Shown here: positions 18,642 to 64,000 of the stretch, in pieces | Position numbering within the stretch: the first letter of the stretch is position 1 | Layout: every line of letters starts with the position of its first letter | Assembly: GCA_030685015.1 (NCBI GenBank) | Contig: JAUXWS010000087.1 | Location: 97,684-161,683 of the forward strand | Direction of reading: 5' to 3' | DNA: 64,000 nt | From: a bacterium | GTDB taxonomy: Bacteria; CAIWAD01 | Program-made: the position numbers and the translations under genes | Notes under the pieces: generated by a model | Database searches by the model: none | Seen by the model: the letters and a program-made list of their open reading frames with translations, nothing else | Told to the model about the DNA's origin: nothing

Positions 18642-18651
18642 TTTGAAGGTC

Positions 18652-40744: not shown

Positions 40745-40791
40745 TGTGGAGTTCTCCTTGCTTGGAGCCGGGTGGCTTGCGCCCCAGGCGA

Positions 40792-41187
40792 TTAGGCCAC
40801 CAGGCCGTGATTGGTCCACAGGACGGAGATTTCGGTCCCGTCCACGGCCAGCACGCGGCCCACGATCTTGTTCGTCGCCACCGCCACCTTGAGCTTGGCC
40901 GTGGTGGCATCGAAAGTGAGGTTGTTCCCGACGGCCGGCGTGCCCGAGAACTGGTCCGTCTGGAAGACGAAGGCGCCCGTGTCCACGACGCATGGGGTCG
41001 TCTCCGTCGCGCCCTGCGTCGCGCAGTTCTTGTCCGCGCGCTTCAGGATGCCGACCGGGATGTCGGCGACATTCGACACCACCGTGAACTCGTTGTTGCC
41101 CGTGCTCTTCAGCACCTGACCCGGCGTGCCCGGCCCTTTCAGGACGCCGTCGCCAAGCTCGATGCCGGGGTGGGAGTTGTTGTACAT
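40792..41187 (-). CDS. Head decoration/structural protein (DUF2190-like)
   Basis: 131 aa, beta-rich, located between the scaffold and capsid genes. Confidence 0.45.
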   Translation of the reverse strand: MYNNSHPGIELGDGVLKGPGTPGQVLKSTGNNEFTVVSNVADIPVGILKRADKNCATQGATETTPCVVDTGAFVFQTDQFSGTPAVGNNLTFDATTAKLKVAVATNKIVGRVLAVDGTEISVLWTNHGLVA

Positions 41188-41240
41188 GATCTGCTCCTTC
41201 TAGTTGAGTCCGCCCCGGCATCCCCGGGTCGGGGGTGATG

Positions 41241-47700: not shown

Positions 47701-49231
47701 AGAGCTCCAAGTTTCCGTGGACCTGAGCCAGAAGCTTGTCCATCTGGGCGTGGAAGGCTTCGAACTGAGCCGGGTCCGATTCCAGTGCCTTCAACTGCGC
47801 CAGCCCCGAATGGAAATCCGCCACGGCCTGGTTGGCTTTCGCCAGTTTCGCCGCGGCATCCTCGGCCGCCTGCTTGGCCGCCTTCCCAGCATCCTCGGCC
47901 TGCTTCAGCGCCGCCAGCTTGGCCGCATCCGTGGCGTGGTCGGTCTTGTAAAGGGCCGCCAGCAGCTCGTCCTTGGACTTCAGCGCGCCGATCTTGTACT
48001 GCTTGAACCAGGCGTCCAGCTCATTCATCGTGTGGCCGGAGAGCCACTCCTCGCTCTGCCCGGAGGCCTTCGACAGGAGCGAGATGCGCTCGGCCTTGGT
48101 GCGGCCGATGGACACGCCCTTCTCCTTGGCCACCTCGCGCAGCTGGGCGCTCGTGAGCTTCCCGTAGTCGCCGCTCTGGAGCGCCTCCTTCACCACGACC
48201 TGGCCCAGCGTGTCGCTAACGATCTTGGCCTCCAGGGTCGCCAGGTCGGTGATCTGGGAGAGATCGCCGGCGCCGGGCGTGTGCGTGCAGCGGCAGGCCG
48301 GGTGCAGGGGCTGGCTGGGCAGGCTGGTGAGCGGGTATTCCTTCCCGTCCAGGGGCTCGCACTCCGGGCACATGCGCTCGTCGCCTGCCGTCAGCCAGAA
48401 CACGGACTTGACGCCGAGCTTGGCTTCAAACTTCAGCGCGCCCTGGTTGTAGGCCCGCATCGTCTCGGATCTCGCGATCAGCTCGGCGCGCTGCTGCACG
48501 GTCTTGAAGACCGTCTTGCCCGCCTGGCGGAACTCGTCCGGGTTCTTCACGATCCCGCCGATGCGCCTCGCGATCTTCGCCGGGCCCTCACCCTGGGCGA
48601 TGCCCACTTGCACGGCACCCTTGATACCGGCGACGAGGTCGTCCGAGAGCTTGCCCAGGAGCTGCAGCTGGTAGCCGGAGAGGAAGTCGAAGGCGTCGGC
48701 CGGGAAAAGGGAGAAGGCCCCCTCCGCCAGCGCCTCGCGGCCGGCCTGGTCCAAGGCCTTGTATCCACCGGCCTTCAGGACGCCGAGCTTGGCAAGGGTG
48801 CCGCCGACTCCTGCCTTGGCCATCTCCTTGGTCATGCCCTGGTAGGCCATGGTCAGCTCCTGCTTCAGCTTGGCGCCCGTCGCTGCCAGATTCTTGTCCA
48901 GCGCTTTCAGCCGAGTGAGCTGGACGAGCTTCCCGCCCTGGCGGTCGGGCGCGAACTGGGTGAGGTCGCCCAGACCCAGGATCTCGGCCTTGACGGACTT
49001 GGCCGCCTGGTCCAGGTGCTTCAGGCTGGTGGTGAGGAGGTCGTCCGAGTAGGCGCCGGCCTTGGCCAGGCTTTCCGCCGTGGCCTTTTCGATGGCTTGC
49101 CGCTGGGTGGTGGCGTAGGCGTTCAGGGCCCGGCTGCCGCGCACCAGGAGGAGCGCTTCCGCCTGCAGGTGGAGCGCTCCCACCGGCAGCGGGGCATGCG
49201 GCCGGCCACACGTACAGGTGGCGCTGGGCAT
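44714..49231 (-). CDS. Giant head morphogenesis protein: Mu gpF/SPP1 gp7 domain fused to HeH motifs, a Pro/Ala linker, a kinase-like domain and a PARP-like ADP-ribosyltransferase-like C-terminal domain
   Basis: 1505-aa ORF directly after the portal gene (TGATG overlap). MuF signature ...RSETMRAYNQG...ERMCPECEPLDGKEY...HPACRCT at aa 250-317. See findings for the other domains. Confidence 0.75.
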   Translation of the reverse strand: MPSATCTCGRPHAPLPVGALHLQAEALLLVRGSRALNAYATTQRQAIEKATAESLAKAGAYSDDLLTTSLKHLDQAAKSVKAEILGLGDLTQFAPDRQGGKLVQLTRLKALDKNLAATGAKLKQELTMAYQGMTKEMAKAGVGGTLAKLGVLKAGGYKALDQAGREALAEGAFSLFPADAFDFLSGYQLQLLGKLSDDLVAGIKGAVQVGIAQGEGPAKIARRIGGIVKNPDEFRQAGKTVFKTVQQRAELIARSETMRAYNQGALKFEAKLGVKSVFWLTAGDERMCPECEPLDGKEYPLTSLPSQPLHPACRCTHTPGAGDLSQITDLATLEAKIVSDTLGQVVVKEALQSGDYGKLTSAQLREVAKEKGVSIGRTKAERISLLSKASGQSEEWLSGHTMNELDAWFKQYKIGALKSKDELLAALYKTDHATDAAKLAALKQAEDAGKAAKQAAEDAAAKLAKANQAVADFHSGLAQLKALESDPAQFEAFHAQMDKLLAQVHGNLELLGPQQAADLGGYLSKAQDVFAFKVELNSQSVLREVLKAAKVKNFQWFTKPESVAYLTQKPLQPKIAEQVAAKVAAAKDAAKLKKAVPVPAPPAPAVPKPAPVAPKSAPAPKAAPMPTAAPVPTPAASPAVQARQADEAWEALKAKNPFTFHSDASELGGVHTKYFYTDQAGDKWLFKPISEDFRAWGDEVAYLIQREIDPDAIEVRFIELKDMHGRMRMGSIQQMKQGLKKPANYKGIDVTTIDPQDLVQLQREHVADWLISNHDGHAEQFLRAQDGRVYGIDKGQLYKYFGKDKLSVDYAPNAGGRFDEPIYNKLLRAHRDGKLKLDLQATGVWVRRVQGISDAAYREMLMPYAGRRFASQPGALEDFLKAATLRKNTLQADFERFYSEIESARTGKPVVFRFGDAAPAPAAATPAAKETGEAWARGSRINLKAEVETIRESGWQGRSLAVDKGDIEDQNILVRQVFGMDGEKQTILQLRLRQEADKRLVKLLKANVVGEVPKELAVEDGFWDTILAAAKTVNTHVGDLNYNTTKLRAAEDLRPALQKLAKAGSAVEQSMAQQYLKTLDDIAHAVEASTAGTPTKLPLVKQYAPSAAELKALQKGVGAPAKGKGLRVTASPRWTEDRVVSKGHELVVEAEHVPLSRFHSSIMDNLVEYHVDLGDGVEAVYKPFQGTGKSVGKSYAMHGRMTVKVREGVSESVVARAMERLKVLGLDTAPSTPWDEELMYLQKVAFVAKIDDSPAFLAAAEEAKKASTESAVRIWREVWSRHLGVKDVTKLPDYNPMGTHQAAVATGKGGTAGMRVQVRFDVSRETLEREMEGYVLMHGMTKGSVEDFLEAVLPTNQSFIPTAERFSTGVPIGGMSPSQDMNSGGASYFFTRIMRSTNTQANTIRFKPDLLRRADAISYNSDHYGKVVGNFVRENRISDLETLKKMPHYCGNETIIKGAVPLLENMDSIVVGDAGRRVKVIALFKKHGITVLPDGRRIEDVVFAR

Positions 49232-52344: not shown

Positions 52345-52461
52345 CTATCTGATTCTCAAGGTGTTCCGACTTGACTTCCGGGAGGGCCTTGTGCAGACTG
52401 ATGTCCGAGAATGAACGGGCGAGCTTATCCCCGCCAGTCACACCCCAGCGCGAGAGGACCC

Positions 52462-53304
52462 ATGCGGTCACAGATCCCAGCCTTTGCCGAACACCTGGCG
52501 GCCCGGCAGCTTGCCCTTGGCACTATCACGCCCTACCTGTCCGAGCTGCGCCGCTTTGCCGCCTTCCTGGAAGCGGAGGGCGTTGCCTTCGATGGACTTT
52601 CCATCACGCAGGCCACACGCTACTTCGTCCGAGAGGGAAGGTCAAGTCTGACCACGCGCCGGGCCCTGACCATCCTGAACCAGTTCCTGACCTGGGCCAA
52701 GCACCCACTGGCGCCTGAGCTCGGCGCCATCCGCCTGCCCCGCGCGCACCAAGCTGCCCCCGACTACCTGAGCGAGGTCGAGGAGAAGGCGCTGCGCAAG
52801 GCCCTGAAGGCGCGCACGGACGTCCGAGACCAGCCCCGGGACCGGGCGCTCTTCTGCCTGCTGCTGGACACGGGGATTCGCATCTCCGAAGCCGCTGGGC
52901 TGACCGTGGGCGACGTGGAGCTGGATGAGAAGACGATCCGGCTGGTCACCAAGGGCGACAAGCGCCGCGTGCGCTTCCTACCCGTGGAGACGCGAGACCT
53001 GCTACGGCCGCTGATGGCCGGCCAGCCGGCGGAGAGCGCCGTGTTTCGCACCCGGACCGGGCGCGCCGTCAGCGATCGGCACATCCGCCGCCTGCTCGAC
53101 TCCTGGGCCAAGGCCGCCGGGATCGAGCGGTTCATCCATCCGCACGCCCTCCGGCACACCTTCGCCACCAGCCTGCTGAAGAAGACCGGCAACCTGCGCC
53201 TGGTCCAGCTCGCCCTGGACCACGAGAGCCCCAAGACGACGGCCATCTACGCCCACGTGGCCGACGAGGAACTTCGGGCCGCCATCGAAGGTCGATGCAA
53301 GTGA
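52462..53304 (+). CDS. Tyrosine recombinase/integrase, XerC/XerD-like
   Basis: ATG preceded by AGAGGA. It has an N-terminal SAM-like domain, and catalytic residues in ...RDRALFCLLLDTGIRISE..., HPHALRHTFAT and TAIYAHV. Confidence 0.85.
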   Translation: MRSQIPAFAEHLAARQLALGTITPYLSELRRFAAFLEAEGVAFDGLSITQATRYFVREGRSSLTTRRALTILNQFLTWAKHPLAPELGAIRLPRAHQAAPDYLSEVEEKALRKALKARTDVRDQPRDRALFCLLLDTGIRISEAAGLTVGDVELDEKTIRLVTKGDKRRVRFLPVETRDLLRPLMAGQPAESAVFRTRTGRAVSDRHIRRLLDSWAKAAGIERFIHPHALRHTFATSLLKKTGNLRLVQLALDHESPKTTAIYAHVADEELRAAIEGRCK

Positions 53305-53497
53305 GGCTTCGTGGTGCGGATTGGATGGAGGCAAGCACCTGCCAAAATCCCAACAATACAGGGTTTAATGATGGCAGTTGGTGTTCGGTGTGTGTATGCG
53401 TTTTAGGAGCAAATCATAGTCAATTCAATCCCGGTCACTGGATTGTGATGCTAACCAAATTTCGCCACCTTATACCCAACAAACAGAAAGAAGGTCG

Positions 53498-53893
53498 ATG
53501 GCAACGGAAACTCAAACAGCAGCATGGACCGAACTCAGTCCGACACCAGCGGCCGCTGCGATGCGCCGGCTTAGGGCCCAGCGCCGACAGGCCCGCATCG
53601 GTTCTGGCCAAAGCTTGCAGCAGGTTCGCATCGAAACCAGCCACTACCTTCACCACACCACGCGCATCGAAGAGCGGGGCTCCGGCAAGGTCTGGGTCCG
53701 CCACTCCTGGGAAGGGCGCGTGCAGGTGAAAGGTCACAACCACGTCATCACGCGCAGCGTGGCCAAGTACGGCGCCCGCAAGGCCTACCTGCAGTGCCTC
53801 AATCAAGTAGGCGAGTGGCTCCTCCTACTCTACCCTGCTGATTGGGTGGAGGTCAAGCTGCAGACGCTTGTGGACAAAGCGCCCGAAGCGTAG
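53498..53893 (+). CDS. Small protein, possible AP2/integrase-type DNA-binding fold
   Basis: 131 aa. GKVWVRHSWEGRVQVKGHNHVITRSVAKYGARKAYLQ resembles an AP2-like three-strand plus helix unit. This is a weak call. Confidence 0.35.
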   Translation: MATETQTAAWTELSPTPAAAAMRRLRAQRRQARIGSGQSLQQVRIETSHYLHHTTRIEERGSGKVWVRHSWEGRVQVKGHNHVITRSVAKYGARKAYLQCLNQVGEWLLLLYPADWVEVKLQTLVDKAPEA

Positions 53894-53920
53894 ACCCCTA
53901 AACAACTCAGATTTCCAATT

Positions 53921-53947
53921 ATCGCCCCGAAAGGGGCGATTTCTCTC
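53921..53947 (+). terminator. Rho-independent terminator (GAAA tetraloop)
   Basis: ATCGCCCC-GAAA-GGGGCGAT followed by TTCTCTC. Confidence 0.55.
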
Positions 53948-53994
53948 ACTGTCCAATCAATCAGCACCAAGACAATGTTTCAGCAATAAAACCT

Positions 53995-54072
53995 GATTAA
54001 TATTTCTCTATTCAACTTGACTTATAAAAGTGTCTCTGCGTAGTTATGCCCACCAAACGAGGAGACGGACCG
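53995..54072 (+). promoter_or_regulatory. Promoter/leader cassette copy A
   Basis: cTTGACT (54017-54022), 18 nt, TAGTTAT (54041-54047), then GCCCACCAAACGAGGAGACGGACCG-ATG. Confidence 0.5.
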
Positions 54073-54477
54073 ATGACGAAGATGACGCGCAAAGGCCTGA
54101 TTAACATGCTGGGCGAAGACGAAGCCGCTTTCATGCAACTCTTGAAGACCAAGCTGATCCAGCTTATGGCAACCGACAACTTGGACACGGTCCAGCTTGC
54201 CCGCGACGAGATGGCCAACCGAGGCTTGGGCACGAACGGAGAGTGGATTGGCTTTCCGGCAGCCAAAAAGCTCTGGCAAGCGCCGGCTGCTGCCGCCCAG
54301 CCGGGCGCCGACGATGCGACGATCGACGCTGGCCTTGCCGCCCTGGCCAACATCCACTGCGGGTTCGAGACCCTGGAAGCCCGCAACATGGACGCTCTGG
54401 ACTTCCACGAGGTCTGCGTCCTAAGCCTGAAGGACGCCCTGCGCGCCGCCTTTGAGCTGGGCCGGGCAAGCAAGTAA
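54073..54477 (+). CDS. Early-region protein, unknown function
   Basis: The start was set by the conserved GGAGAC leader. 134 aa. Confidence 0.5.
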   Translation: MTKMTRKGLINMLGEDEAAFMQLLKTKLIQLMATDNLDTVQLARDEMANRGLGTNGEWIGFPAAKKLWQAPAAAAQPGADDATIDAGLAALANIHCGFETLEARNMDALDFHEVCVLSLKDALRAAFELGRASK

Positions 54478-54500
54478 CCCACACGAGAGGAGACACGGAC

Positions 54501-54815
54501 ATGCTGCTCAACGACCTGATTGCCAAGCTGGAAGAGCTGGCCCAGGACCACCCGGACGCAGAGGTCAGACTCCTGACTCAATCTCAATGGCCTTTTCAGA
54601 ATTGCCTGCTTGGCATCACCACCCAAAGCGCCATTGCCGACGAAGTGGATCAGCAAGAGGCCGAACGGCTTCTGGAGCGGGGTGTCGAACTGGAAGACGA
54701 GGACGAGGTCGGCCCGCGCAAGGACGCCAACCCTGGACCCGAGATCATCTACCTGGTCGAGGGCAGCCAGCTCGGCTACGGCAGCAAGGCCGCCTGGGAT
54801 GTCTGCGAACGCTGA
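54501..54815 (+). CDS. Early-region acidic protein, unknown function
   Basis: 104-aa ORF preceded by GAGAGGAGAC. Confidence 0.5.
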   Translation: MLLNDLIAKLEELAQDHPDAEVRLLTQSQWPFQNCLLGITTQSAIADEVDQQEAERLLERGVELEDEDEVGPRKDANPGPEIIYLVEGSQLGYGSKAAWDVCER

Positions 54816-54897
54816 AACGTGCCGATGGAAAACTGATACACCGATCACACGCCCGGGCCGGCAGGATTCTGCCCAGGCAACACCAAGGAGACGACCA

Positions 54898-55173
54898 ATG
54901 GCAAAGCAGAACTGGGACGTGAAGGCCTTCGTGGCCGGGCAAGTGGCGCTGGGACGCGAGACCCTGGGTGGCGCCCGCAAGCGGCTGGGCCGCGTGGATG
55001 TCCAGCTCCAGCAGGCCTTCCTGCAGCTGGGGCAGGATGCGCAGCTTCAGGCGGAGATGGCCACGGTGATGGGCCGCATGCAGGCCCTAAAGGAAAGCGT
55101 CGAGCAGGTGGCGGAGCGGCTGGACGCGCTTGCACCGAAGGAGACCCTGGCTGCCCAGGAGGCCCAGGTCTGA
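54898..55173 (+). CDS. Early-region coiled-coil protein, unknown function
   Basis: The start MAKQNWD is preceded by AAGGAGACGACC. 91 aa. Confidence 0.45.
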   Translation: MAKQNWDVKAFVAGQVALGRETLGGARKRLGRVDVQLQQAFLQLGQDAQLQAEMATVMGRMQALKESVEQVAERLDALAPKETLAAQEAQV

Positions 55174-55197
55174 CGGCCCACTGGCATTCCCACTCTT

Positions 55198-55221
55198 ACG
55201 GGCCATTCGTGGCCCGTTTTA
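55198..55221 (+). terminator. Rho-independent terminator
   Basis: ACGGGCCA-TTCG-TGGCCCGT followed by TTTTATGTT. Confidence 0.55.
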
Positions 55222-55249
55222 TGTTCAACCATTATTAGTAGTCCAGAAC

Positions 55250-55332
55250 TAAAGTCCGAAGATTTCTCACGATTATGTTGACTTAGTTAAGTGGCGATGC
55301 GTAGTTACGCCCAACAAAAAAGGAGAGACACC
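55250..55332 (+). promoter_or_regulatory. Promoter/leader cassette copy B
   Basis: AAAGTCCGAAGATTTCTCA, then TTGACT (55278-55283), 18 nt, TAGTTAC (55302-55308), then GCCCAACAAAAAAGGAGAGACACC-ATG. Confidence 0.5.
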
Positions 55333-55809
55333 ATGTCAAGCATCGAATCGGCAGTCACCAAACGCATCGCACGGACTTGGATGGTGGGTTACGACACTAC
55401 GGAGCGCGCGGACTTGGCTGCCCTGGGTGACGGGCAGCTTTCTAACGCCTACCGCCGCTTCCATGGCGCACTGAACAATAGGACGGAGCAGGAGAAGACC
55501 GAAATCGCCGCCCTCTACGCCGAGCTCATGCGTCGGCACTACCGGCGCCAAGCCGCCGTGGAGGAGCAGGCCCGGCAGGCCTGGGCCATGGTCGAAGCCG
55601 CTGGAGTCTGGCCGAACAGCACCAAGCGCGTGCCGCAGGTCGGGGCCAGGGTTTGGAAGGTGTTCCCCGCCCTGTTCGGCATGGCCCTACGGGTCAATGG
55701 CCGGGTCTTTCGGGCCAAAGTTGGGCTCCGGGTCCGGCTGGACGCCGGGCAGCCCATCGCCGGCGCCAAAACGGTCGACCTGGACAGCGGATGGCGGATC
55801 GCAGAATAG
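55333..55809 (+). CDS. Early-region protein, unknown function
   Basis: 158 aa. The start was set by the conserved leader. Confidence 0.5.
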   Translation: MSSIESAVTKRIARTWMVGYDTTERADLAALGDGQLSNAYRRFHGALNNRTEQEKTEIAALYAELMRRHYRRQAAVEEQARQAWAMVEAAGVWPNSTKRVPQVGARVWKVFPALFGMALRVNGRVFRAKVGLRVRLDAGQPIAGAKTVDLDSGWRIAE

Positions 55810-55830
55810 CCTTAACGCCAGCCTCAGCAA

Positions 55831-55855
55831 AGCGCCCCGAAAGGAGCGTTTTCTG
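55831..55855 (+). terminator. Rho-independent terminator (GAAA tetraloop)
   Basis: AGCGCCCC-GAAA-GGAGCGTT followed by TTCTGCTTT. Confidence 0.5.
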
Positions 55856-55857
55856 CT

Positions 55858-55983
55858 TTACTGGACTAGCGATCCATTTGACTGCTTGTGGCATGTAAAA
55901 TAGTCCGAAGATTTCTCATATATAACTTGCTTTCGCAAAGTGTCACTGCGTAGTTATGACCAACACAAAGGGAGACGGACACT
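55858..55983 (+). promoter_or_regulatory. Promoter/leader cassette copy C (long form)
   Basis: TTTGACTGCTT...TAAAATAGTCCGAAGATTTCTCA, then cTTGCTT (55927-55932), 18 nt, TAGTTAT (55951-55957), then GACCAACACAAAGGGAGACGGACACT-ATG. Confidence 0.5.
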
Positions 55984-56160
55984 ATGACGATCAAGACTAA
56001 CACCAAGCAAACCGCCGCCAACAACACCTTCCTGAAGAGCGTAAAGCGGGACTGGAACACGAAGATCTACAAGCACGTCCTGGCCCTGGTCAACACCCAA
56101 GGCGAGGACGCCGCCCGCGCCAACCTGCAAACCTTCACCACCGCCACGCTGAACTACTAA
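55984..56160 (+). CDS. Small early-region protein (58 aa), not in the supplied ORF track
   Basis: ATG follows directly after the conserved GGAGACGGACACT leader. I translated it by hand: MTIKTNTKQTAANNTFLKS...TTATLNY*. Confidence 0.45.
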   Translation: MTIKTNTKQTAANNTFLKSVKRDWNTKIYKHVLALVNTQGEDAARANLQTFTTATLNY

Positions 56161-56173
56161 GAGGGCTGGACTC

Positions 56174-56413
56174 ATGACGACCAACACCAACCTCGCGCCC
56201 ATGAAAACCGGCCTCTACCTGCTTGGGAAGGCCAGTGCCCAGGCAAATACCCTGCAGGCCACACTGCAGCGGGCCGCCGCACAGTTTGCCGCCGACAAGC
56301 GCTTCCGGAACGACCTCGGCGACGCCCTGGCCCAGATCCACAAGCTGGCCGAAGCCATCCAAGACCTCGCGGTCCACGCCGAGATGGCCATCGACGAAAC
56401 TCCAACCGCTTGA
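56174..56413 (+). CDS. Early-region helical protein, unknown function
   Basis: 79-aa ORF starting 13 nt after the previous stop. Confidence 0.45.
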   Translation: MTTNTNLAPMKTGLYLLGKASAQANTLQATLQRAAAQFAADKRFRNDLGDALAQIHKLAEAIQDLAVHAEMAIDETPTA

Positions 56414-56442
56414 CAGCCAGCAGCAATAAGCTGGAGCACTTC

Positions 56443-56709
56443 ATGAACACGACCGCCACCGCCCAGACCACCACGGTCGGCCGCTTCACCTTCAACCACG
56501 AGACCGGCAAAGTCGTCGGCCCCGCCGGCTACCTGCAAAGCGGCCGGTTAGAAGCCATCATGGACAAGATCCACAGCGGGCAGAGCACGGTTTACAACAC
56601 CGGGCGCCAGCTGGGCCATGGCGGGATCAACCTGATCCTTGTCTGTATCCAGACCGACTACGCCGCCTGGGCCGGCGAACAGGAATTCCTGGCCCTTTCC
56701 CGCCGGTAG
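56443..56709 (+). CDS. Early-region protein, unknown function
   Basis: Start chosen at MNTTATAQ. 88 aa. Confidence 0.4.
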   Translation: MNTTATAQTTTVGRFTFNHETGKVVGPAGYLQSGRLEAIMDKIHSGQSTVYNTGRQLGHGGINLILVCIQTDYAAWAGEQEFLALSRR

Positions 56710-56731
56710 CGGCAACCCCAACAAGGAGCCC

Positions 56732-56932
56732 ATGACCATGCGACTGCTCTCAAGCGCCCCTGCCCGCATCTTCGCCACCTTGGCCGAAGCCGACAATGCT
56801 GCCGCCGAGCTGGCCACCGGCGAGACCGAGGGCTGGACCTACACGGTCATCCCGGACCCCAAGGGCTCCGGCCGCTGCACTATCGAGATCCGCGACGAGG
56901 ACGGCCGCTTCGTTTCCAAGCTGACCAGCTGA
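56732..56932 (+). CDS. Early-region protein, unknown function
   Basis: The start MTMRLLSS is preceded by AAGGAGCCC. 66 aa. Confidence 0.4.
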   Translation: MTMRLLSSAPARIFATLAEADNAAAELATGETEGWTYTVIPDPKGSGRCTIEIRDEDGRFVSKLTS

Positions 56933-56945
56933 AAGGACCACCCCC

Positions 56946-57215
56946 ATGAACCGCTTCACCGTCACGCGCACAGGAACCGGTGCCCCATTCGGAACCATCA
57001 CCCTTGACCCTCTCAATCCGGATCCCGACACAAAGGCCAGCTTTACACCGGCCAATGCCCGGTCCAAGCGAGAGTCCTTTAACGTGGAAGCCCAGCTCAT
57101 CGACGCCGCCCGCTGGCTGGCCGAAACTGAAGACAACGTCGTGAGCATTTGCCTCGACTGCGGCTTGACCGTCGGCAAGGAGCCTGAGGCGACACTGGGC
57201 GCGCCTGGCGCCTGA
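56946..57215 (+). CDS. Early-region protein, unknown function
   Basis: 89-aa ORF, the last gene before the terminator. Confidence 0.45.
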   Translation: MNRFTVTRTGTGAPFGTITLDPLNPDPDTKASFTPANARSKRESFNVEAQLIDAARWLAETEDNVVSICLDCGLTVGKEPEATLGAPGA

Positions 57216-57240
57216 AGCTTCCACCAAAAGCCCCATCAAA

Positions 57241-57265
57241 GGCGCTCCGAAAGGGGCGCTTATTG
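57241..57265 (+). terminator. Rho-independent terminator (GAAA tetraloop)
   Basis: GGCGCTCC-GAAA-GGGGCGCT followed by TATTGT. Confidence 0.5.
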
Positions 57266-57391
57266 TATAACTGGGCTATTCATCTCTTTGACTGTTTTAG
57301 ACATCTAAAATAGTCCGTAGATTTATTAAATCTAACTTGCTATCCGAAAGTAACGATGCGTAATTATGCCCAACAAAACGGGAGAGACACC
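57266..57391 (+). promoter_or_regulatory. Promoter/leader cassette copy D (long form)
   Basis: TTTGACTGTTT...TAAAATAGTCCGTAGATTTATTA, then cTTGCTA (57337-57342), 18 nt, TAATTAT (57361-57367), then GCCCAACAAAACGGGAGAGACACC-ATG. Confidence 0.5.
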
Positions 57392-57598
57392 ATGACGCGC
57401 AAGACCAACACCCAGAACGCCACGGGCAACAACCCCCACATCCTGGGCCGTTTTTCCAGCCCGGCCCTGGCGGCCTCCTTCTCGGCCAGGACCCTGAAGG
57501 CCTCGCGCCAATTCATGGGCGACGACGAGAAGATCTGGGTGGTCACCATGGCCGAGGGCGAGCGCCTGCTGGCCGACGGATACGAAGAACTGCGCTAA
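57392..57598 (+). CDS. Early-region protein, unknown function
   Basis: 68 aa. The start was set by the conserved leader. Confidence 0.45.
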   Translation: MTRKTNTQNATGNNPHILGRFSSPALAASFSARTLKASRQFMGDDEKIWVVTMAEGERLLADGYEELR

Positions 57599-57624
57599 GC
57601 GAAACAGCAAAAGGAGACGGACCC

Positions 57625-58119
57625 ATGACAACCGAAGCCACCACCACGCTACAAGACCTGCTGACCCAGCTCGCGCATGCCAAGGCGGTGTTGCGCGAGG
57701 CGCGGCATGACGACGACATGACGCACCGGGACGACGCAGCAAAGGCGGAGGTCCAGGAGCGACTTATCTACGCCAGACTGGCTCTTCGGGACGTCGAGAT
57801 GGCAATCGGTGAGGCCATGGCCCCAGGCGGCAAGGCCGTGGTCATCCTCACCCTTGGCAGGGAAACCTGCCTCGTCTCCATCACCACCATGGCCAACATT
57901 GGTCAGCCGGAGCGCGCCTACAGCGACGACTTCTGTGGAGCCTACCAGAAGTGCGAAGGATGCAAGGTCTGGAAGCAGACGATCCAGTTCTGGGCCAAAG
58001 ACGGTCGCTGGGTGCCCAGCATGGTCGAGACCATCCTCAACCGCCACGGATACCGCCTGATCGGCTGGGCAGACAACATGCCGGCTGCCGCGCGCAGCAA
58101 GCACAACAGCGCCATCTGA
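57625..58119 (+). CDS. Early-region protein with a small Cys cluster, unknown function
   Basis: 164-aa ORF preceded by AAGGAGACGGACCC. It contains CGAYQKCEGC. Confidence 0.5.
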   Translation: MTTEATTTLQDLLTQLAHAKAVLREARHDDDMTHRDDAAKAEVQERLIYARLALRDVEMAIGEAMAPGGKAVVILTLGRETCLVSITTMANIGQPERAYSDDFCGAYQKCEGCKVWKQTIQFWAKDGRWVPSMVETILNRHGYRLIGWADNMPAAARSKHNSAI

Positions 58120-58180
58120 CGGACAGCCCCAACGCCCGGCGCTGGCCCAAGGGCGGCCCGGGCCTGCTAAGGTGGACGCC

Positions 58181-58429
58181 ATGCATCAGCAGATGATTCG
58201 GGAAGAACTCACGCGGCAGGGCCGGAATGGCATCAACCCCCGCTGGATCGAAGGCTGGATGCGCCTGGAGCTGGGCTGCCTCGACTGGCTGGACAAGCCT
58301 CGCTTTCGCCGCGAGGTGACCATCGCCGCCCAATGCGTGGACGCCTCTACCACCCACGAAAACGAGACCCTGGCCATGAGCCTGCTCGGCCCGCCGCGCA
58401 GCCAGCGCAAGGAGAACACACATGCCTGA
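58181..58429 (+). CDS. Early-region protein, unknown function
   Basis: 82-85 aa (ATGs at 58172 and 58181). It is convergent with the radical-SAM operon. Confidence 0.4.
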   Translation: MHQQMIREELTRQGRNGINPRWIEGWMRLELGCLDWLDKPRFRREVTIAAQCVDASTTHENETLAMSLLGPPRSQRKENTHA

Positions 58430-58565
58430 CTTCACCCAGATACCCGCCCACCTCGCCCCGGCTCTCTTCGCGCCCGCGGGCCACCCTGGGCCTGCCCGCT
58501 CATCGCCATACGTCGCCCAAAACTCACTCCGGCGAAGTTCGTTCTTGTCACGGTTGCGGAAATCC

Positions 58566-59501
58566 TCACCATGACTTCCACCTGCAGTGCGCACCCATGT
58601 CAAGGGAATGCAGCACTTCCGCACAGATCACTTCGACACTGGTACGTGGACAAAATCCAGGGGAATGACTCAGACTGATCAACTTAAGATGTTTGCGAGG
58701 TACGACCATCTGCACTTGCTGCATGAAGCCAGCTACATCCATCGTGCAAGCGTCGTGAGGCAATCCACCAACCTCGTCTGCGTCATCAAAATAGTCGCAG
58801 TCGATATCCAAAATGATCGGAGTTTCGCGCGGTATAATGCTGCCTAGCTCCGCGAGATTGCAGTGACCATCGCAGCGAAGTATTGGAATGCCATTACTGC
58901 CATCTCTTGATGGTCGACAACGCAGACGTCGGACGCCTCGGTTTAACAGGTCGTCCTCGGCCCAGCCAACCGTGATGGACGAGGGATTTCTTACGCCGGC
59001 GATGTTCGCAGTTGAATGATCGGGAAACACGAAAGCTATTCCAATGACCGGCAGCAAGTGAAGGGCGAGCGTTAGGTATGATCCAATTTCGATGGCACTG
59101 CTGTCGACGGCCGATCTCACCGTGAACGGTTCCTGCGGCGAGACTGTCTTACCGGTCCAGCGGTCGATTAAACGACCTGTTGCATCCGGAACGACGTTTG
59201 GACTGCCCAAGTCGTCGTGACTATCGGCGTGGATGATGTAAACTGGCGGTCCGTTCAAGAACATCGAGAGAAAATGCGGCAGGATCGCTGCGTGATGGAT
59301 GACTTCTACCGCAATAACGGATCCCGATGTGTGTGTTGCCAGGACCGTCGAAAGCGGCGGCACACATGCAGACGTCTCGCAAATGACCCGCCCCGGGAGA
59401 AACTCGATGCGAATTACATCCAGTATCTGCAATTCCTTGCGAGCTACGGCCTCGATGTCGATACCGAAAATGGGATCAAGAGGGATCTCAATCGACGGCA
59501 T
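58566..59501 (-). CDS. Arginase/ureohydrolase-fold (UPF0489-like) metal-dependent hydrolase candidate
   Basis: 311 aa. IIHADSHDDLGSP and IILDIDCDYFDD motifs are spaced about 137 aa apart, like the DAHxD and SxDxDxxDP metal-ligand motifs of the arginase fold. It is the last gene of the operon. Confidence 0.45.
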   Translation of the reverse strand: MPSIEIPLDPIFGIDIEAVARKELQILDVIRIEFLPGRVICETSACVPPLSTVLATHTSGSVIAVEVIHHAAILPHFLSMFLNGPPVYIIHADSHDDLGSPNVVPDATGRLIDRWTGKTVSPQEPFTVRSAVDSSAIEIGSYLTLALHLLPVIGIAFVFPDHSTANIAGVRNPSSITVGWAEDDLLNRGVRRLRCRPSRDGSNGIPILRCDGHCNLAELGSIIPRETPIILDIDCDYFDDADEVGGLPHDACTMDVAGFMQQVQMVVPRKHLKLISLSHSPGFCPRTSVEVICAEVLHSLDMGAHCRWKSW

Positions 59502-60537
59502 AAGTGCGCGTAGCGTCTTTTGGAATGGCGCGTCGACACCAAGTATTTAGGGCTTCGAAGTCTAGGGGCAATTCCGCCGGCAGTGATCGACTCAGTGTTT
59601 CGAGCCGAGCAACGGCATCGCAATCACTGAACTGTTTCATCATCATCTGACAACTGGCGCAGGTACCCGACGGTGCATCTTCCAATGAATTGCCGAACAC
59701 CGGCCATGCCCGGTGTGGACCGAACACGGCGTTGATGCGCGCCAATGGGTGAGCCGCAAGACGATTGAGGCAACAGGCTAAACTGTCCTTACCAATCTTT
59801 CCGAGTTTCATCCCAGGGGTATCTTGCTTCGCGTTGCAGCACACGACGACTTCACCACTAGGTGTGACGGTGGGGCTTGTGAGTGAGAAAGCACAGCGCG
59901 CACCGCAAGCATCGATTGATTCCTTCAGTCCGCTTGCGGCGGCGCGTCCGATGCTTGAGATCTGAGCGGGAAGCCAGTCGACTGATTCCGCGCCTTGAAA
60001 CAACCCCGCGCACGCGTGCAGCAAGGTATCACAGGTCCAAGTCGACCCGCTCTGTTCGACAACGTTTACCGCGACATCTAGACCTAGTGTAAGACCGCAA
60101 TCCAGAAAGGCAGCAAGCTCCCTCAGAGACACGACTCGAGCATGCCAGTCGTCGTACGACACCATTACCCTTTCCAAGCCAGCATGGGCAAGTCTACGCA
60201 ACCGAACCGGTGGGGCAAGTTGACCTGGTGAAAAGATCGAGGTGACCATTTCAACCATCAAGCCCGCGCTGCGGGCAGTACCGACAATCTCCTCGAGTTC
60301 GGCGTGCAACAGCGGTTCGCCACCCGTCACATGGATCGTGCGGATGGAAAGCTCACTTGCCTGACGCACCACCGCACGCACAAGTCCCAACCCCATTTCT
60401 TCACCCTGAGGACCTGCACCAAGGTAACAGTGCCCACATCCAGTGTGACAGCGCTCAGTAACGCGGAGTGCAAGGACGTATGGCACAGCGATTGGCACTG
60501 CTGATGAAGGGCCATCGTACTCATATGATTCGAACAT
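59488..60537 (-). CDS. Radical SAM enzyme with a C-terminal Cys-rich (SPASM/twitch-like) region
   Basis: CHTGCGHC (CxxxCxxC) near the N-terminus and GGEPLL. C-terminal Cys residues CGARC...VVCCN...CASC. It overlaps the downstream gene by 14 nt. Confidence 0.75.
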   Translation of the reverse strand: MFESYEYDGPSSAVPIAVPYVLALRVTERCHTGCGHCYLGAGPQGEEMGLGLVRAVVRQASELSIRTIHVTGGEPLLHAELEEIVGTARSAGLMVEMVTSIFSPGQLAPPVRLRRLAHAGLERVMVSYDDWHARVVSLRELAAFLDCGLTLGLDVAVNVVEQSGSTWTCDTLLHACAGLFQGAESVDWLPAQISSIGRAAASGLKESIDACGARCAFSLTSPTVTPSGEVVVCCNAKQDTPGMKLGKIGKDSLACCLNRLAAHPLARINAVFGPHRAWPVFGNSLEDAPSGTCASCQMMMKQFSDCDAVARLETLSRSLPAELPLDFEALNTWCRRAIPKDATRTYAVD

Positions 60538-60560
60538 TCGGTCTCCTTCCTGTTCGCAAC

Positions 60561-61442
60561 TCAGCTCACCGCAATGAGTTCCTTCGCCAGCATAGCCGGG
60601 CCGAGCAGGAGACCCAGTCGTTGTCCCCGTTCTTGACAGTCAGTTAGGCGCATTCTCGCCGCATCTTCCAGGGAACTCAATTCTCGGGTGAAATGATGGC
60701 CCTTCAATTTCAGGCGGCCCTCATCGTCCTTCATGCCATGGACCAGAACAAAAGCAGGCTCAGTCGGTACATTCCGCAGGATATCGTTGAGAGCGTCGTC
60801 AACATCATAATTGTAGAACAGAGCTGACACGTATTCCATCGCCCATTGTAGTCTAATTTCGTCCGTCGACACCTCGCGTAATGCCCAAAAGAAGTACTTA
60901 ACGCGTTTCCAGTAGTCTATGTAGGGCCACGCGCATTTTGCTCGCGGTCGCATATCATACCTATCCGGCGAAGCATCGTACAATCGCCCATCGTCGAGCA
61001 GGTTGAAGCGGAGCGCAGCCAACCAACGCCTCTCGGCGCCTTCACCAAGGCCTAGCCGAGGCCGTACGCGGTCACAGCGCATCTGAAAGTGTGAAAAGAA
61101 GTAAAGAGCCTGCTTCTCATTCCAAAATCCCGAGTCTTTGTCGATTAGATCATCAACAAAGCGGCCCATGAGACAGGCGAGCAACTGATGACGAACGATG
61201 TCGGGCCGTTCAGCAGTCGCTTCACGGCCAAGTACGGCTTCCAGAGTGGGGAGCACGAAGCGGGCGGTGTACATGTAGTGCAGGTAAACAACGATGTGTT
61301 CTAGTTCAGATAGGGATGCATCCCGAAGCTCGTCCAGAGTCTCGGCGATCTCGAGTTCAATGTATGGAGCGATAGAAGATAGCCATCGATGAAGCTCGAC
61401 AGGACCCTCGAATTCAAAGTTGAAATGACTAGTCGCCATCAT
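60561..61442 (-). CDS. All-helical protein with two Asp-rich motifs (class I isoprenoid-synthase-like candidate)
   Basis: 293 aa. FVDDLIDKD at about aa 95 and YDVDDALND at about aa 222. The functional assignment is tentative. Confidence 0.35.
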   Translation of the reverse strand: MMATSHFNFEFEGPVELHRWLSSIAPYIELEIAETLDELRDASLSELEHIVVYLHYMYTARFVLPTLEAVLGREATAERPDIVRHQLLACLMGRFVDDLIDKDSGFWNEKQALYFFSHFQMRCDRVRPRLGLGEGAERRWLAALRFNLLDDGRLYDASPDRYDMRPRAKCAWPYIDYWKRVKYFFWALREVSTDEIRLQWAMEYVSALFYNYDVDDALNDILRNVPTEPAFVLVHGMKDDEGRLKLKGHHFTRELSSLEDAARMRLTDCQERGQRLGLLLGPAMLAKELIAVS

Positions 61443-61453
61443 GCTTGCGCCCT

Positions 61454-62683
61454 TCAGGCTTCGAGCGACGGAGTAGACTGCGGCGCTGGGACTTCAGCCA
61501 AGAGCTTTTGCACTCGCGCTTTGAGTTCCGCGTCTTCCGTTGTGTCAAGCGCACGGGCAGCGTATCGAAAGGCGGCGTCGAAATCCCGAAGGACTATGGC
61601 GGCACCTGCAGCAAGGTAGCCCGCCAAGGGTGAGCGCAGAACAGGAGGAGCTGTCCTGTAGGCTAAAAGGGCCTCTGCGTGGCCGTGCTTTGCGATCAAG
61701 CCGAACATTCGCTCAGGCAGATCGATCGTTGAAGCAATGCATCCATTACGCGCCAGGCATCCACCCCGACATCGGCCCGAATGCGCATGAGTGCAATCGG
61801 TGCACCATTTGAACAGAGTTGGCATCCACCTGTTTCGGTCAACGGATCTCTGGAAGTGCCGCTTCAAATCCTCCGGTGAAGAAAAATCTTCGAGAAGGAC
61901 CCTGTCACAACCGGACAGCGCAAAGCAACGCATTACTTCTAAGTCTGGACTGATATCTAATGGGACATCACACGTACCTAGGCGGCTGGCAGTCTCAGGG
62001 AGATACTTAGCCAGCCATCCAAGATCTTCGTCGCTGAAGAAGCAAACAGGTATCGGGCAATCTAAGTGAGCCCGCAGGCCTAGCTGGACTGCCTTTCGCA
62101 GCATTAGCATGCATCGGGTTGCAAGGGGCTCGAAGTCGACCGCTCCTACCACGCGGCAAGCTGCATCGAGCTCGGGATGGGCGACAGTCCACCGAAAGGT
62201 TTGTCGTCCAAGGTTGTAGGCCAAATTGGGCATGAATTCGGGGGAGAAGCCAAGTTCCCACACGTTAAATCCTAGGGTGGTGCGGAATCCCCGGCGAATG
62301 GCATTAACAGCGTTGCAAATGACGCTATCGAAGCGGCCCGGGGATGCGTAGGTCATTGGCTCGTTGACATTAATGAGCAAGCTGACATCTGCAGCATCAA
62401 GATTATTGAGCAGGGCCGTATCGAAATAACCGCCAGTAAATACAGTCAACGACACTTTGGGGCAGATCTTGCGGAACACTCTTACTATCGCCTGGAGTTC
62501 TGGATGCAAAAATGGCTCGCCACCCAGTAGTGAGAGCGCATCAAGGCCGTTCAGCGCCACCCAGCGGGCGACACGCTCGGCGTTGGCGATGCTAATCTGA
62601 CTACTGCCACTCCGCGTGCTTTCGCCAACCTCAAAGCAATACGGGCAACGGTTAGAACACTTTCTCGTGATGATGAGGTTCAT
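61454..62683 (-). CDS. Radical SAM enzyme with a C-terminal Cys-rich region and a helical tail
   Basis: CSNRCPYC at aa 9-16 and GGEPFL. Late Cys cluster CTDCTHAHSGRCRGGC. 409 aa. Confidence 0.75.
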   Translation of the reverse strand: MNLIITRKCSNRCPYCFEVGESTRSGSSQISIANAERVARWVALNGLDALSLLGGEPFLHPELQAIVRVFRKICPKVSLTVFTGGYFDTALLNNLDAADVSLLINVNEPMTYASPGRFDSVICNAVNAIRRGFRTTLGFNVWELGFSPEFMPNLAYNLGRQTFRWTVAHPELDAACRVVGAVDFEPLATRCMLMLRKAVQLGLRAHLDCPIPVCFFSDEDLGWLAKYLPETASRLGTCDVPLDISPDLEVMRCFALSGCDRVLLEDFSSPEDLKRHFQRSVDRNRWMPTLFKWCTDCTHAHSGRCRGGCLARNGCIASTIDLPERMFGLIAKHGHAEALLAYRTAPPVLRSPLAGYLAAGAAIVLRDFDAAFRYAARALDTTEDAELKARVQKLLAEVPAPQSTPSLEA

Positions 62684-63870
62684 ATACCTCCCCCGACGGC
62701 GAGAAACTTCCGCCAGGAATCAAGAACCTCCATGTGATTGATGAAATGATCGTGCAGTCTCAGATTGGCTTTACAGACGTTTGCGGAGAAGGCGGAGTCC
62801 TGAAGATCGAAGGCCGGGCATCCGTGCTCACAGAGAAAACGGGCTCTACAATTTTGGCACACCGTTTCGTATTTTGCATTTTTCGCGTGAAAGGCCACCA
62901 AGGCATCAAGTTCGAATGGTGCCGTCAGCCGTGCAACATTTCCCATGCTGTAGCGGGCAAACTTCTCACCTGTACCTGCACAACCGCAAGGATAGATTTC
63001 TCCAGCAAGGTCGATCGCGACCATGGTCAGTCCGGCATGACAAAAGGGCGTATCGCATGTCAACTGGCCAGGTTCTTTTGAAAAGCAGCGCTTAAGGAAG
63101 CGATCAATTTTTTGCGCCAACCGCTTCTCGACAATCGTAAAATCTGATTCCTGGGTTGCCGTGCACACGTCACGAAATGCTGTGAAAATCGCTTCGGCAG
63201 GCAGCGGGCTCATAGACGAACCTTTACCGACGGAAGCACCAACGTTGGCCAAGAATGAAGTTACTCCAATTTCGCGCAGAAACTCCATGACTTCCGCCAT
63301 ACGGTCGTAATTATGCAAACCTATAACGCAAATTGGACCGCTAAATAGGCCAGCCGCTCGCGCCTTCTCGATGCCCCTCATGGTTGCGGCATGATCTCCG
63401 CGCATCTGGTTGTGTATGTGGGCCGGACCGTCCAAAGATGTGCCTAGGCTGACACCGAATTCGCGGAAAATGGAAAGATGCTCATCCGATATCAGCGTTA
63501 GATTACTCTGCAGTCCGAAAGACACTTTCCCACCGCGAGCAGTTGCTCGTGCAGTAGTGTATTCGCAAGCTTCGGCATAGAAACTGGGATCCAGCAGCAG
63601 TGGCTCGCCTCCGTGGAAAATCACGGAAATCGCCGCAGAACTCGACGAAGAAAAGATGGTATCAACGCCCTGGCGCAGGACCGAAATATCCATTAATTGT
63701 TCAGCACCAGGCTTTGATTGGACGGCTTTTGCATAGCAATAACGGCAGGAGAGATTGCAGGCTGATGTCACCTGAAAATGGAGTTCGTTTACGCGCCGCA
63801 GCGCTCGGGCTAGTGACCGCTGACAGAAATCGTCTGAGGATGTGAAATTCTTTGGGCGTAGTCCGGCCAT
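62680..63870 (-). CDS. Radical SAM/SPASM enzyme, anaerobic sulfatase-maturase-like
   Basis: CNLSCRYC and HGGEPLL. SPASM-type CHAGLTMVAIDLAGEIYPCGC and CQNCRARFLCEHGCPA. The start was chosen at MAGLRPK (a GTG at 63894 is possible). There is a 4-nt overlap with the next gene. Confidence 0.8.
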   Translation of the reverse strand: MAGLRPKNFTSSDDFCQRSLARALRRVNELHFQVTSACNLSCRYCYAKAVQSKPGAEQLMDISVLRQGVDTIFSSSSSAAISVIFHGGEPLLLDPSFYAEACEYTTARATARGGKVSFGLQSNLTLISDEHLSIFREFGVSLGTSLDGPAHIHNQMRGDHAATMRGIEKARAAGLFSGPICVIGLHNYDRMAEVMEFLREIGVTSFLANVGASVGKGSSMSPLPAEAIFTAFRDVCTATQESDFTIVEKRLAQKIDRFLKRCFSKEPGQLTCDTPFCHAGLTMVAIDLAGEIYPCGCAGTGEKFARYSMGNVARLTAPFELDALVAFHAKNAKYETVCQNCRARFLCEHGCPAFDLQDSAFSANVCKANLRLHDHFINHMEVLDSWRKFLAVGGGI

Positions 63871-64000
63871 AATAGAACCCCGCTGCTGCGGCACGACGGG
63901 GCCGCCCAGCTACGTAACAACTATAATCTCTAACCTCAGAAAGGGTTTGTGTTCCCGCTTGGACCGCTTGCCATAAAGCGTGTAAAAACACTTTCCGGCG

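Follow-up and report, generated by a model that had tools for sequence, protein, structure and literature searches.

The stretch of DNA analysed here, which we call the window, is 64,000 nucleotides (nt) long and comes from a bacterium of the GTDB lineage CAIWAD01 (assembly GCA_030685015.1, contig JAUXWS010000087.1, positions 97,684 to 161,683 of the forward strand). Near its right-hand end lies a cassette of five genes, all on the minus strand, for three radical S-adenosylmethionine (radical SAM) enzymes, a protein with a predicted isoprenoid-synthase fold and a relative of the arginases. We examined what these five proteins are, where else they occur together and what substrate they may act on. 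In the order in which they are read, the genes and the DNA before them are:

rSAM404, 62680-63894, minus strand: 404 amino acids (aa) from a GTG start; radical SAM/SPASM enzyme resembling peptide maturases.
rSAM409, 61454-62683, minus strand: 409 aa; radical SAM enzyme with a SPASM-like cysteine-rich region and a helical C-terminal tail.
p293, 60561-61442, minus strand: 293 aa; predicted soluble, wholly helical protein folded like a trans-isoprenyl diphosphate synthase (class I isoprenoid synthase).
rSAM349, 59488-60537, minus strand: 349 aa; twitch-like radical SAM enzyme, probably with a single auxiliary cluster.
arg311, 58566-59501, minus strand: 311 aa; putative binuclear metallohydrolase, a divergent relative of UPF0489 proteins and peptide arginases.
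Region upstream of gene 1, 63895-64000, minus strand: 106 nt, without a precursor open reading frame (ORF).

An earlier reading of this DNA, made from its letters alone (the sequence-only reading), had described a tightly packed operon, and this is what is found: consecutive genes are joined by a 4-nt overlap (62680-62683), gaps of 11 and 23 nt and a 14-nt overlap (59488-59501). The ortholog alignment favours an ATG at 63870 as the start of rSAM404, giving 396 aa, over the GTG at 63894. The motifs CNLSCRYC, CSNRCPYC, CHTGCGHC, HADSHDD and DIDCDYFDD and the two Asp-rich motifs that had been picked out are all present in the ORF translations. The cassette is also AT-richer than its surroundings, as had been claimed, with a GC content of 0.543 compared with 0.681 upstream of the integrase (window 1-52400) and 0.607 at 53300-58565. 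GC at third codon positions is 0.52-0.58 in the five genes and 0.79-0.94 in the prophage and host genes that were measured. As both values lie far below those of the prophage and host, the cassette is foreign in composition, which bears out the first word of its earlier description as 'foreign cargo'. A scan for promoters and terminators gave a signal no better than shuffled sequence, and an Rfam scan returned tRNA only.

All three radical SAM enzymes exceed the Pfam cut-off for PF04055 of 29.5 bits (rSAM404 62.5, rSAM409 43.9 and rSAM349 48.3 bits) and all have cysteines for auxiliary iron-sulphur clusters, so their earlier assignment stands. Against the SPASM model rSAM404 scored 21.0 and rSAM349 19.2 bits, both under the cut-off of 21.5 bits. 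The ortholog alignment nevertheless gives rSAM404 the canonical SPASM layout, with a CxxxCxxC cluster (C38/C42/C45) and nine conserved C-terminal cysteines that include CX2CX5CX3C. Its closest solved relatives are CteB, ChlB, anSME and SkfB, and its best-scoring families are modifiers of peptides or proteins throughout: PapB (NCBIfam score 129.5, cut-off 340), anSME (122.8, 349), DynA (117.7, 450), AmcB (109.8, 425), GrrM (104.6, 310) and HxsB (89.2, 370).

The other two are more isolated. rSAM409 resembles known enzymes (MoaA, viperin-like proteins) over its N-terminal ~100 aa only. Its C9/C13/C16 cluster and ten further cysteines, in a SPASM-like arrangement, are kept in all five orthologs, and a conserved helical tail of ~90 aa follows the cysteine region. 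In rSAM349 the C30/C34/C37 cluster and C215, C233, C293 and C296 are conserved, the four extra cysteines giving a twitch-like pattern. Its best NCBIfam matches are MoaA, PqqE and ScmF, all far under their cut-offs; its nearest relatives in the PDB are BlsE, MoaA, PqqE, SkfB and YydG, and the likeness is confined to the generic N-terminal core. As judged by these comparisons, rSAM409 and rSAM349 are two radical SAM enzymes without characterised relatives beyond the radical SAM core.

p293 matched no model in Pfam, NCBIfam or PADLOC, and none of the PF00348 and terpene-synthase models at E <= 0.1. Only four relatives were found in 5.8 billion protein clusters, and 20 in an exhaustive profile search of 1.84 billion representatives; the profile of the family found nothing among PDB sequences at E <= 10. 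The structure predicted with AlphaFold2 (AF2) is of high quality (pLDDT 94.2, pTM 0.92), and among its top 50 Foldseek matches in the PDB 44 are trans-isoprenyl diphosphate synthases (FPPS, GGPPS, OPPS and others) and six are MoeN5 or UbiA, with probabilities of 0.69-1.00, TM-scores of 0.30-0.56 and an identity of ~12%. Two Asp-rich motifs lie ~118 aa apart, GRFxDDLxDxDS (D97-D103) and DxDDxxND (D213-D220). They contain D97-D98-x-x-D101-x-D103, resembling FARM, the first of the Asp-rich motifs of prenyl synthases, and D215-D216-x-x-N219-D220, resembling the second (SARM). R94, D101, D103, R180, D213, D220 and T227 are invariant in the family, and D97, D98 and D216 nearly so. The first motif, FVDDLIDKDSG, aligns weakly (hhalign probability 3%) with the FARM of a Methanoregula GGPPS, IHDDIMDDDSL.

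The isoprenoid-synthase nature proposed for p293 thus stands at the level of the fold and fails at the level of sequence, where no family model was matched. We regard p293 as a new sequence family with a confidently predicted class I isoprenoid-synthase fold. Its gene directly follows an rSAM409-type gene in every locus seen, including two short ones (L018, L019). ComQ and PalQ, enzymes of the same superfamily, prenylate RiPP precursors (RiPPs being peptides that are made on the ribosome and modified after translation) on a Trp acceptor (PMC10853753). Our leading hypothesis is that p293 may be a peptide prenyltransferase of the ComQ type; membership of that family is unsupported.

Peptide arginases convert Arg to ornithine in RiPPs (PMC12703449, PMC10028609) and are defined by three motifs, DXHXD, LDIDLDYF and EEH(N/H)EAF (PMC12703449). 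In OspR, a member of this group, the metal ligands are His12, Asp39, His41, Asp43, Asp165 and Asp167 (PMC10028609). arg311 belongs to a family with 13 members in the 5.8 billion clusters, and matched no Pfam, NCBIfam or PADLOC model. It has the first motif (D93-S-H95-D-D97) and the second (L231-D232-I-D234-C-D236-Y-F-D, aligning with OspR residues 137-174). H70, H91, D93, H95, D97, D232, D234 and D236 are invariant in all 13 members, and in alignment these residues match the six ligands that would form the binuclear manganese site of a ureohydrolase. H70 stands 23 residues before D93, which we take to be the same spacing as between His101 and Asp124 of classical arginase; HMMER pairs H70 with a different OspR His.

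The family profile matches OspR (8brp, E = 4.5e-6) and then an agmatinase, and 12 of the 13 members match the PF12640 model (best 1.3e-11). The AF2 model of arg311 (pLDDT 88.7) also has OspR 8brp as its top Foldseek match (E = 5.6e-8, TM-score 0.53-0.55), with agmatinases, arginases and further guanidino hydrolases behind it. Both results uphold the arginase/UPF0489 layout that had been suspected from the motifs. The clade has features of its own, an extra N-terminal beta-rich domain of ~65 aa and the invariant motifs SSAIEIGSYLT and SPGFCP.

The same genes occur together in other genomes, which disposes of one objection that the sequence-only reading had raised against itself, a lack of conserved co-occurrence. 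About eight further, independent loci, in bacteria and in Methanoregula, have all or part of the cassette, and since its genes recur together there at 30-64% identity the cassette is not a chance grouping. It is very rare: 185,579 species genomes, a set of representatives that did not include the window's own genome, gave one locus, in a Methanoregula metagenome-assembled genome, and a metagenome collection gave three. The relatives are listed below, with identities to the window's proteins.

L001: rSAM404 - rSAM409 - p293 - rSAM349 - arg, the gene order of the window; rSAM404 62.5%, rSAM409 64.2%, p293 61.0%, rSAM349 58.5%, arg311 50.3%.
L012: rSAM404 - rSAM409 - p293 - arg; rSAM404 45.3%, rSAM409 38.5%, p293 42.6%, arg311 32.2%; rSAM349 not seen, the contig stopping ~0.8 kb after arg.
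L003/L014 and L013 (Methanoregula-type): precursor(s) - rSAM409 - p293 - arg; for L003 (also L014) rSAM409 39.9%, p293 43.0%, arg311 34.5%, an rSAM404-like gene on the opposite strand 32.0%; rSAM349 not seen.
L011: rSAM409 (partial) - p293 - arg - rSAM349; rSAM409 32.9% (partial), p293 38.9%, rSAM349 32.1%, arg311 34.3%; rSAM404 not seen.
L016, a distant clade: precursor - rSAM349 - rSAM404 - rSAM409 - p293; rSAM404 42.2%, rSAM409 32.5%, p293 25.9%, rSAM349 35.6%; arg none.
L018 and L019, both short: rSAM409 - p293.

Across L001, L012, L003, L013, L016, L018 and L019 the rSAM409 orthologs are 32-64% identical. A 5.6-kb sister contig from another sample (L002) has the same junction as the window and is cut inside gene 1.

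In Methanoregula (L003 7249-12902, the same as L009/L010; also L014) the cassette has a GC content of 0.36 within a flank of 0.61, and at L013 an IS256-family transposase lies directly downstream (5013-5774). The foreign composition in both a bacterium and a methanogen, together with this transposase, suggests that the cassette is mobile and has been moved horizontally across domains. A possible transposase-like ORF, judged by eye, lies upstream of the L001 cassette (5-520). The Methanoregula cassette is inserted just after a block of mevalonate-pathway, GGPPS and GluRS genes, and its neighbours are two toxin-antitoxin pairs of the HicAB type, a Fic protein and a protein of 316 aa that weakly matches terpene cyclases and alpha/alpha-toroids.

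Every relative that is complete on its upstream side has a small ORF before the enzymes, and we take this to be the precursor gene. It encodes 54-64 aa and is found in L001, L012, L013, L003/L014, where there are two tandem copies, and L016. A profile search found only seven such proteins in the 5.8 billion clusters, and an eighth was read from L016. None matched a Pfam or NCBIfam model, and the literature searched held no relevant description of the core motif. The eight aligned sequences have a leader of the form L-P-x-x-x-E/D-F-x-x-L-L/I, in which L-P...F...D is invariant, and a C-terminal core, Y-x-x-Y-x-x-Y-x-R-x-x-stop, whose three Tyr and whose stop position are the same in all eight. 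The core consensus is [NGS]-Y-x-x-Y-x-x-Y-[NS]-[RK]-x-[CS]-stop, as in ...ANYSVYHRYNRGC. Bacterial cores end in Y-[NS]-[RK]-x-C, mostly Y-N-R-x-C. The three Y-x-x units, invariant in all eight precursors of the relatives, are what a triceptide-type core would have.

The residue two after the third core Tyr links the precursor to arg311. It is Arg in seven of the eight precursors and Lys only in L016. An arginase-like gene is present at every locus with an Arg-type precursor for which the DNA was read (L001, L012, L013, L003/L014). L016, the sole locus with a Lys core, has the precursor, orthologs of the three radical SAM enzymes and an ortholog of p293; its six reading frames contain no arginase-like ORF. 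The missing gene points to conversion of Arg to ornithine at that site, and this fits the chemistry, as ornithine made by arg311 would supply the primary amine that Lys gives directly. The L016 locus (500-9238; core YSVYHKYNKSC, no arginase) adds a protein resembling 2-oxoglutarate (2OG)-Fe(II) oxygenases, an unassigned 390-aa protein, a histidine phosphatase and an ATP-binding cassette (ABC) exporter.

Distant members of the arginase clade occur at two further loci, where other radical SAM enzymes stand beside the arginase-like gene and there is no p293 homolog. L007 (10001-14775) also has a 64-aa ORF ending DYDKYNRDGYERGGG, a 405-aa protein without assignment, a radical SAM enzyme and a family-9 glycosyltransferase, and in L004 (6828-10942) the radical SAM enzyme is accompanied by a 2OG oxygenase and an ORF of 64 aa. 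The two loci may represent sister families of RiPPs.

The genes recur as a set, a precursor family exists and is syntenic with them, and all five enzymes have intact folds and intact ligands for metals or clusters. We consider it likely that the five genes encode the maturation enzymes of an undescribed and very rare RiPP-type pathway that acts on a tyrosine-rich peptide. A RiPP-type pathway with its precursor past position 64000 had been one of the options offered by the sequence-only reading, and synteny strongly supports it. In L001, L012, L013, L014/L003 and L016 the precursor gene lies 180-950 nt upstream of the first enzyme, while the window extends only 106 nt upstream of gene 1, so that a precursor beyond 64000 is what would be expected. 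The cassette's own precursor should lie 180-950 nt past that position.

Several results weigh against this RiPP assignment. The cassette's own precursor was not seen: tblastn, a precursor-profile hidden Markov model run on six-frame translations of the window and regular expressions for the motif all came back empty, in line with the earlier remark that no substrate gene was in view. The leader-binding domain, the RiPP recognition element (RRE), is recognisable in none of the three radical SAM enzymes. In arg311 the sequence xHH(S/A)A(L/V)L stands in place of EEH(N/H)EAF, the motif in which peptide arginases bear their first His ligand, the EE acidic pair not being conserved, and arg311 itself does not match PF12640 at E <= 1. 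The covariation of Lys with the missing arginase rests on one locus, on a 9.5-kb contig. For p293, the sequence link to prenyl enzymes appears to be the one 11-residue match given above, and Trp, the acceptor of ComQ and PalQ, is found in the core of none of the eight precursors, the sole Trp being in the L016 leader. Most loci have neither a protease nor an exporter, the ABC exporter of L016 being the only one. The identity and order of any cross-links are guesswork.

The chemistry can be pictured in four steps. The leader would dock the precursor on the enzymes, with the helical tail of rSAM409, arg311's N-terminal domain and p293 as candidate surfaces. Each of the three radical SAM enzymes would cleave SAM to a 5'-deoxyadenosyl radical and abstract hydrogen atoms in the core, perhaps leaving the three Tyr-x-x units cross-linked through C-C or C-O bonds of the cyclophane type; for the bacterial cores, with their N-x-x-C end, a Cys thioether at that end is conceivable as well. 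arg311 would then hydrolyse the Arg two after the third Tyr to ornithine and urea, the Lys-core variant already having its primary amine. Finally p293, working with rSAM409, would bind a magnesium-diphosphate donor, most likely a prenyl diphosphate, through its two Asp-rich motifs and may alkylate the peptide in the manner of ComQ and PalQ.

Among described systems, the peptide-arginase RiPP pathways (OspR/landornamide; FlmR and OhkR; BipC and PbsE/biphenomycins; pfam12640) come close, as they too have a UPF0489-type gene beside a precursor with a conserved Arg and a radical SAM enzyme (PMC12703449, PMC12707348). OspR shares the DxHxD and LDIDxDYF motifs and the closest fold with arg311, but is only ~12-13% identical. 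The cassette's precursor is not among the six types listed for these pathways (NHLP, N11P, SCIFF, SCCRRSCN, DD(I/V)LF, MGXRRSSE), and the cassette lacks their partners, whether multinuclear non-haem iron-dependent oxidative enzyme (MNIO), B12-dependent radical SAM enzyme, lanthionine synthetase or epimerase. [quoted passage not shown] We rejected a biphenomycin-type system, as the five proteins contain no MNIO or B12-binding domain and the core is Y-x-x-Y-x-x-Y-x-R rather than F-R-F.

The cross-linking SPASM maturases (the three-residue cyclophane-forming enzymes, 3-CyFEs, AmcB, GrrM and XyeB; RrrB, WprB and NxxcB; PapB/CteB; DynA) share the CxxxCxxC motif and the full set of SPASM cysteines with rSAM404. 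Known cross-links made by radical SAM enzymes join Tyr to Arg (RrrB), Trp to Arg at W-P-R (WprB) and Asn to Cys at NxxC (NxxcB), or form three-residue cyclophanes at Tyr and His (PMC11851443). The three aromatic-x-x units of the precursor core, and the N-x-x-C end of the bacterial ones, are substrate motifs of these enzymes (PMC11851443). rSAM404 differs from them in scoring 2.6-4-fold under their cut-offs and in having no N-terminal RRE, and the cassette differs in devoting three different radical SAM enzymes to an 11-residue core. Membership of the triceptide, PapB and anSME families was rejected, all scores being below cut-off.

With ComQ, PalQ and the trans-isoprenyl diphosphate synthases p293 shares the all-helical fold, the FARM-like DDxxDxD and a second Asp motif, and like ComQ and PalQ it is encoded in a RiPP-type operon (PMC10853753). 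It differs in being always paired with a radical SAM gene, in the lack of a Trp acceptor and in belonging to no sequence model; neither ComQ nor PalQ was among its fold-search matches. The Hxs (HxsB/HxsC), SynChlorMet (ScmE/ScmF), GeoRSP and pyrroloquinoline quinone (PQQ)/mycofactocin systems likewise stack radical SAM/SPASM enzymes beside a short precursor with a conserved C-terminal core. Unlike the cassette, they have no partner resembling an arginase or of isoprenoid-synthase fold. The sequence-only reading had itself asked whether the cassette was a known Hxs, Scm, PQQ or sulfatase-maturation system, and all the curated models were missed by a wide margin. Membership of the Hxs, SCM, GeoRSP and PQQ systems was rejected on these scores (score/cut-off: HxsB 89.2/370, HxsC 22.4/267.9, ScmE 16.1/400, ScmF 43.3/400, GeoRSP 38/400, PqqE 50/381).

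The same proteins could serve other ends. As most loci lack a protease and an exporter, there is room for an intracellular cofactor made in the manner of PQQ or mycofactocin, in which the Tyr core is cross-linked, a Tyr ring is linked with the ornithine or Lys amine and a small product, redox-active or able to bind metal, is cut out for use inside the cell. The near constancy of the core between bacteria and methanogens would suit such a product, as would the absence of an immunity gene from most loci, the PqqE, MoaA and quinohemoprotein-maturase models among the weak matches and the 2OG oxygenases of the variant loci; the apparent need for a primary amine fits a C-N bond to an oxidised Tyr. 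We nevertheless think it unlikely. A cassette so rare, patchy and compositionally foreign would be unusual for the cofactor of a host enzyme, no conserved candidate client enzyme adjoins it, L016 encodes an ABC exporter, and the cut-offs of the PQQ, Mft and Qhp models were all missed widely. A pathway to a small molecule is less probable again, and we would be surprised to find one. p293 would then make or modify an isoprenoid, with the radical SAM enzymes as tailoring enzymes, the ureohydrolase acting on a free guanidino compound and the small ORF incidental or regulatory. The prenyl-synthase fold of p293 and the position of the Methanoregula cassette beside the mevalonate-pathway/GGPPS operon and the weakly terpene-cyclase-like (alpha/alpha-toroid) protein are in keeping with this, but the bacterial loci have no isoprenoid genes nearby. 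Similarly, the fold matches of arg311 after OspR are agmatinases and guanidino-acid hydrolases, and rSAM409 and rSAM349 weakly match small-molecule enzymes, but the best fold match of arg311 is a peptide arginase and rSAM404 resembles only maturases of peptides and proteins. An incidental ORF is also hard to reconcile with one kept in sequence, orientation, position and stop codon over eight loci, whose Arg/Lys state covaries with the arginase gene.

The setting of the cassette raises the further idea of prophage cargo that serves in defence, in counter-defence or in lysogenic conversion, perhaps by making an antiviral molecule with radical SAM enzymes or by modifying a protein of phage or host. 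A role in defence or counter-defence, or in modifying a phage or host protein, had also been proposed by the sequence-only reading. The integrase is 5.3 kb away and the prophage structural module adjoins, the cassette stands convergent to a block of small ORFans that bear reiterated promoters, its composition is foreign, and as the window holds no second att site the prophage may run past its end. The weak matches of the radical SAM cores to prokaryotic viperins (pVip), the only PADLOC matches obtained, cover just the generic N-terminal core. We rejected assignment to prokaryotic viperins or another PADLOC defence system, as the pVip matches are partial (E 3.5e-11 to 0.06, at most ~130 residues) and the NCBIfam prokaryotic viperin model gives 29 bits against a cut-off of 180. 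p293 and arg311 are absent from 2.9 million IMG/VR viral contigs and p293 from 50,697 phage records and 72,556 plasmids; in the viral fold search the best match of p293 was a UbiA prenyltransferase and its fold had no phage counterpart. This absence of the markers, together with the lack of phage association at the other loci, makes a phage-specific or defence role unlikely, and a dedicated precursor peptide already explains the substrate. That proposal has fared badly, and we give cargo of this kind very little credence.

Returning to the RiPP-type pathway, its general kind is known, a cassette of radical SAM/SPASM enzymes with a peptide arginase. New with respect to Pfam, NCBIfam, PADLOC and the literature searched are the family of the precursors, that of p293 with its fixed radical SAM partner, the divergent clade of arginases and the combination of enzymes, on which the literature searched held nothing relevant. 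The cassette had been called unnamed, and so it remains, with every NCBIfam match far under its cut-off. It is possible, though we hold this only tentatively, that the product forms a new class, made by an isoprenoid-synthase-fold protein obligately coupled to radical SAM chemistry on a three-Tyr core whose Arg is first turned into ornithine. The product might be a peptide with prenyl groups and several cross-links or else a Tyr-amine cofactor like PQQ, and the cassette would be exchanged horizontally between bacteria and methanogens and here possibly be prophage-borne.

RiPP pathways in which radical SAM enzymes have unusual partners have been one of the main sources of antibiotic scaffolds and of new enzyme chemistry, as with darobactin, biphenomycin and landornamide. 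A complete candidate system is now defined, with sequences at hand for co-expression (L001, L012, L013, L016), and its arginase clade has a natural control in the Lys-core operon without arginase. As it forms an island of foreign composition in a bacterium of high GC and in a methanogen alike, it also appears to be mobile across domains. If p293 does prenylate or alkylate a peptide together with a radical SAM enzyme, peptides would be modified in a new way, which might become a tool for peptide engineering.

The window also contains a prophage-like stretch (18568-53304), with a structural module from ~19 to 52.3 kb. Its features are:

18568-18642: tRNA-Asn.
21943-24570: tail fibre.
31889-34654: tape measure.
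39881-41302: major head protein.
41241-43832: DNA methyltransferase, 863 aa, among the head genes.
44714-49231: 1505-aa protein with a minor-head/morphogenesis domain.
In the module, between 18568 and 53304: portal and large terminase.
52411-53304: tyrosine integrase, 297 aa.

The large terminase is at most 26.5% identical to that of any known phage. A search of the window for a direct or att-type repeat of the tRNA-Asn end gave nothing. To follow the sequence past 64000, an exact 47-mer was sought in the viral contigs and the gene 1 protein, with either start, was looked up by exact match; neither gave a match.

Between the integrase and the cassette (53300-58566) lie small plus-strand ORFs with a GC content of 0.61, intermediate between the prophage and the cassette. 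The sequence-only reading had called 53.3-58.5 kb a phage early region. The structural module and integrase do adjoin it, but none of the nine ORFs matched a PHROG family. A 74-nt element occurs four times in this block (53992-54065, 55253-55326, 55902-55975 and 57312-57385), at 61-100% identity to the reference copy. It contains a box of the TTGAC type, the conserved segment GCGTAGTTATGCCC and GGAGA as a ribosome-binding site, and two or more of the copies stand before small paralogous ORFs starting MT(I/R)KTNT. The element has the look of a promoter and 5' leader reiterated in the ORFan gene block.

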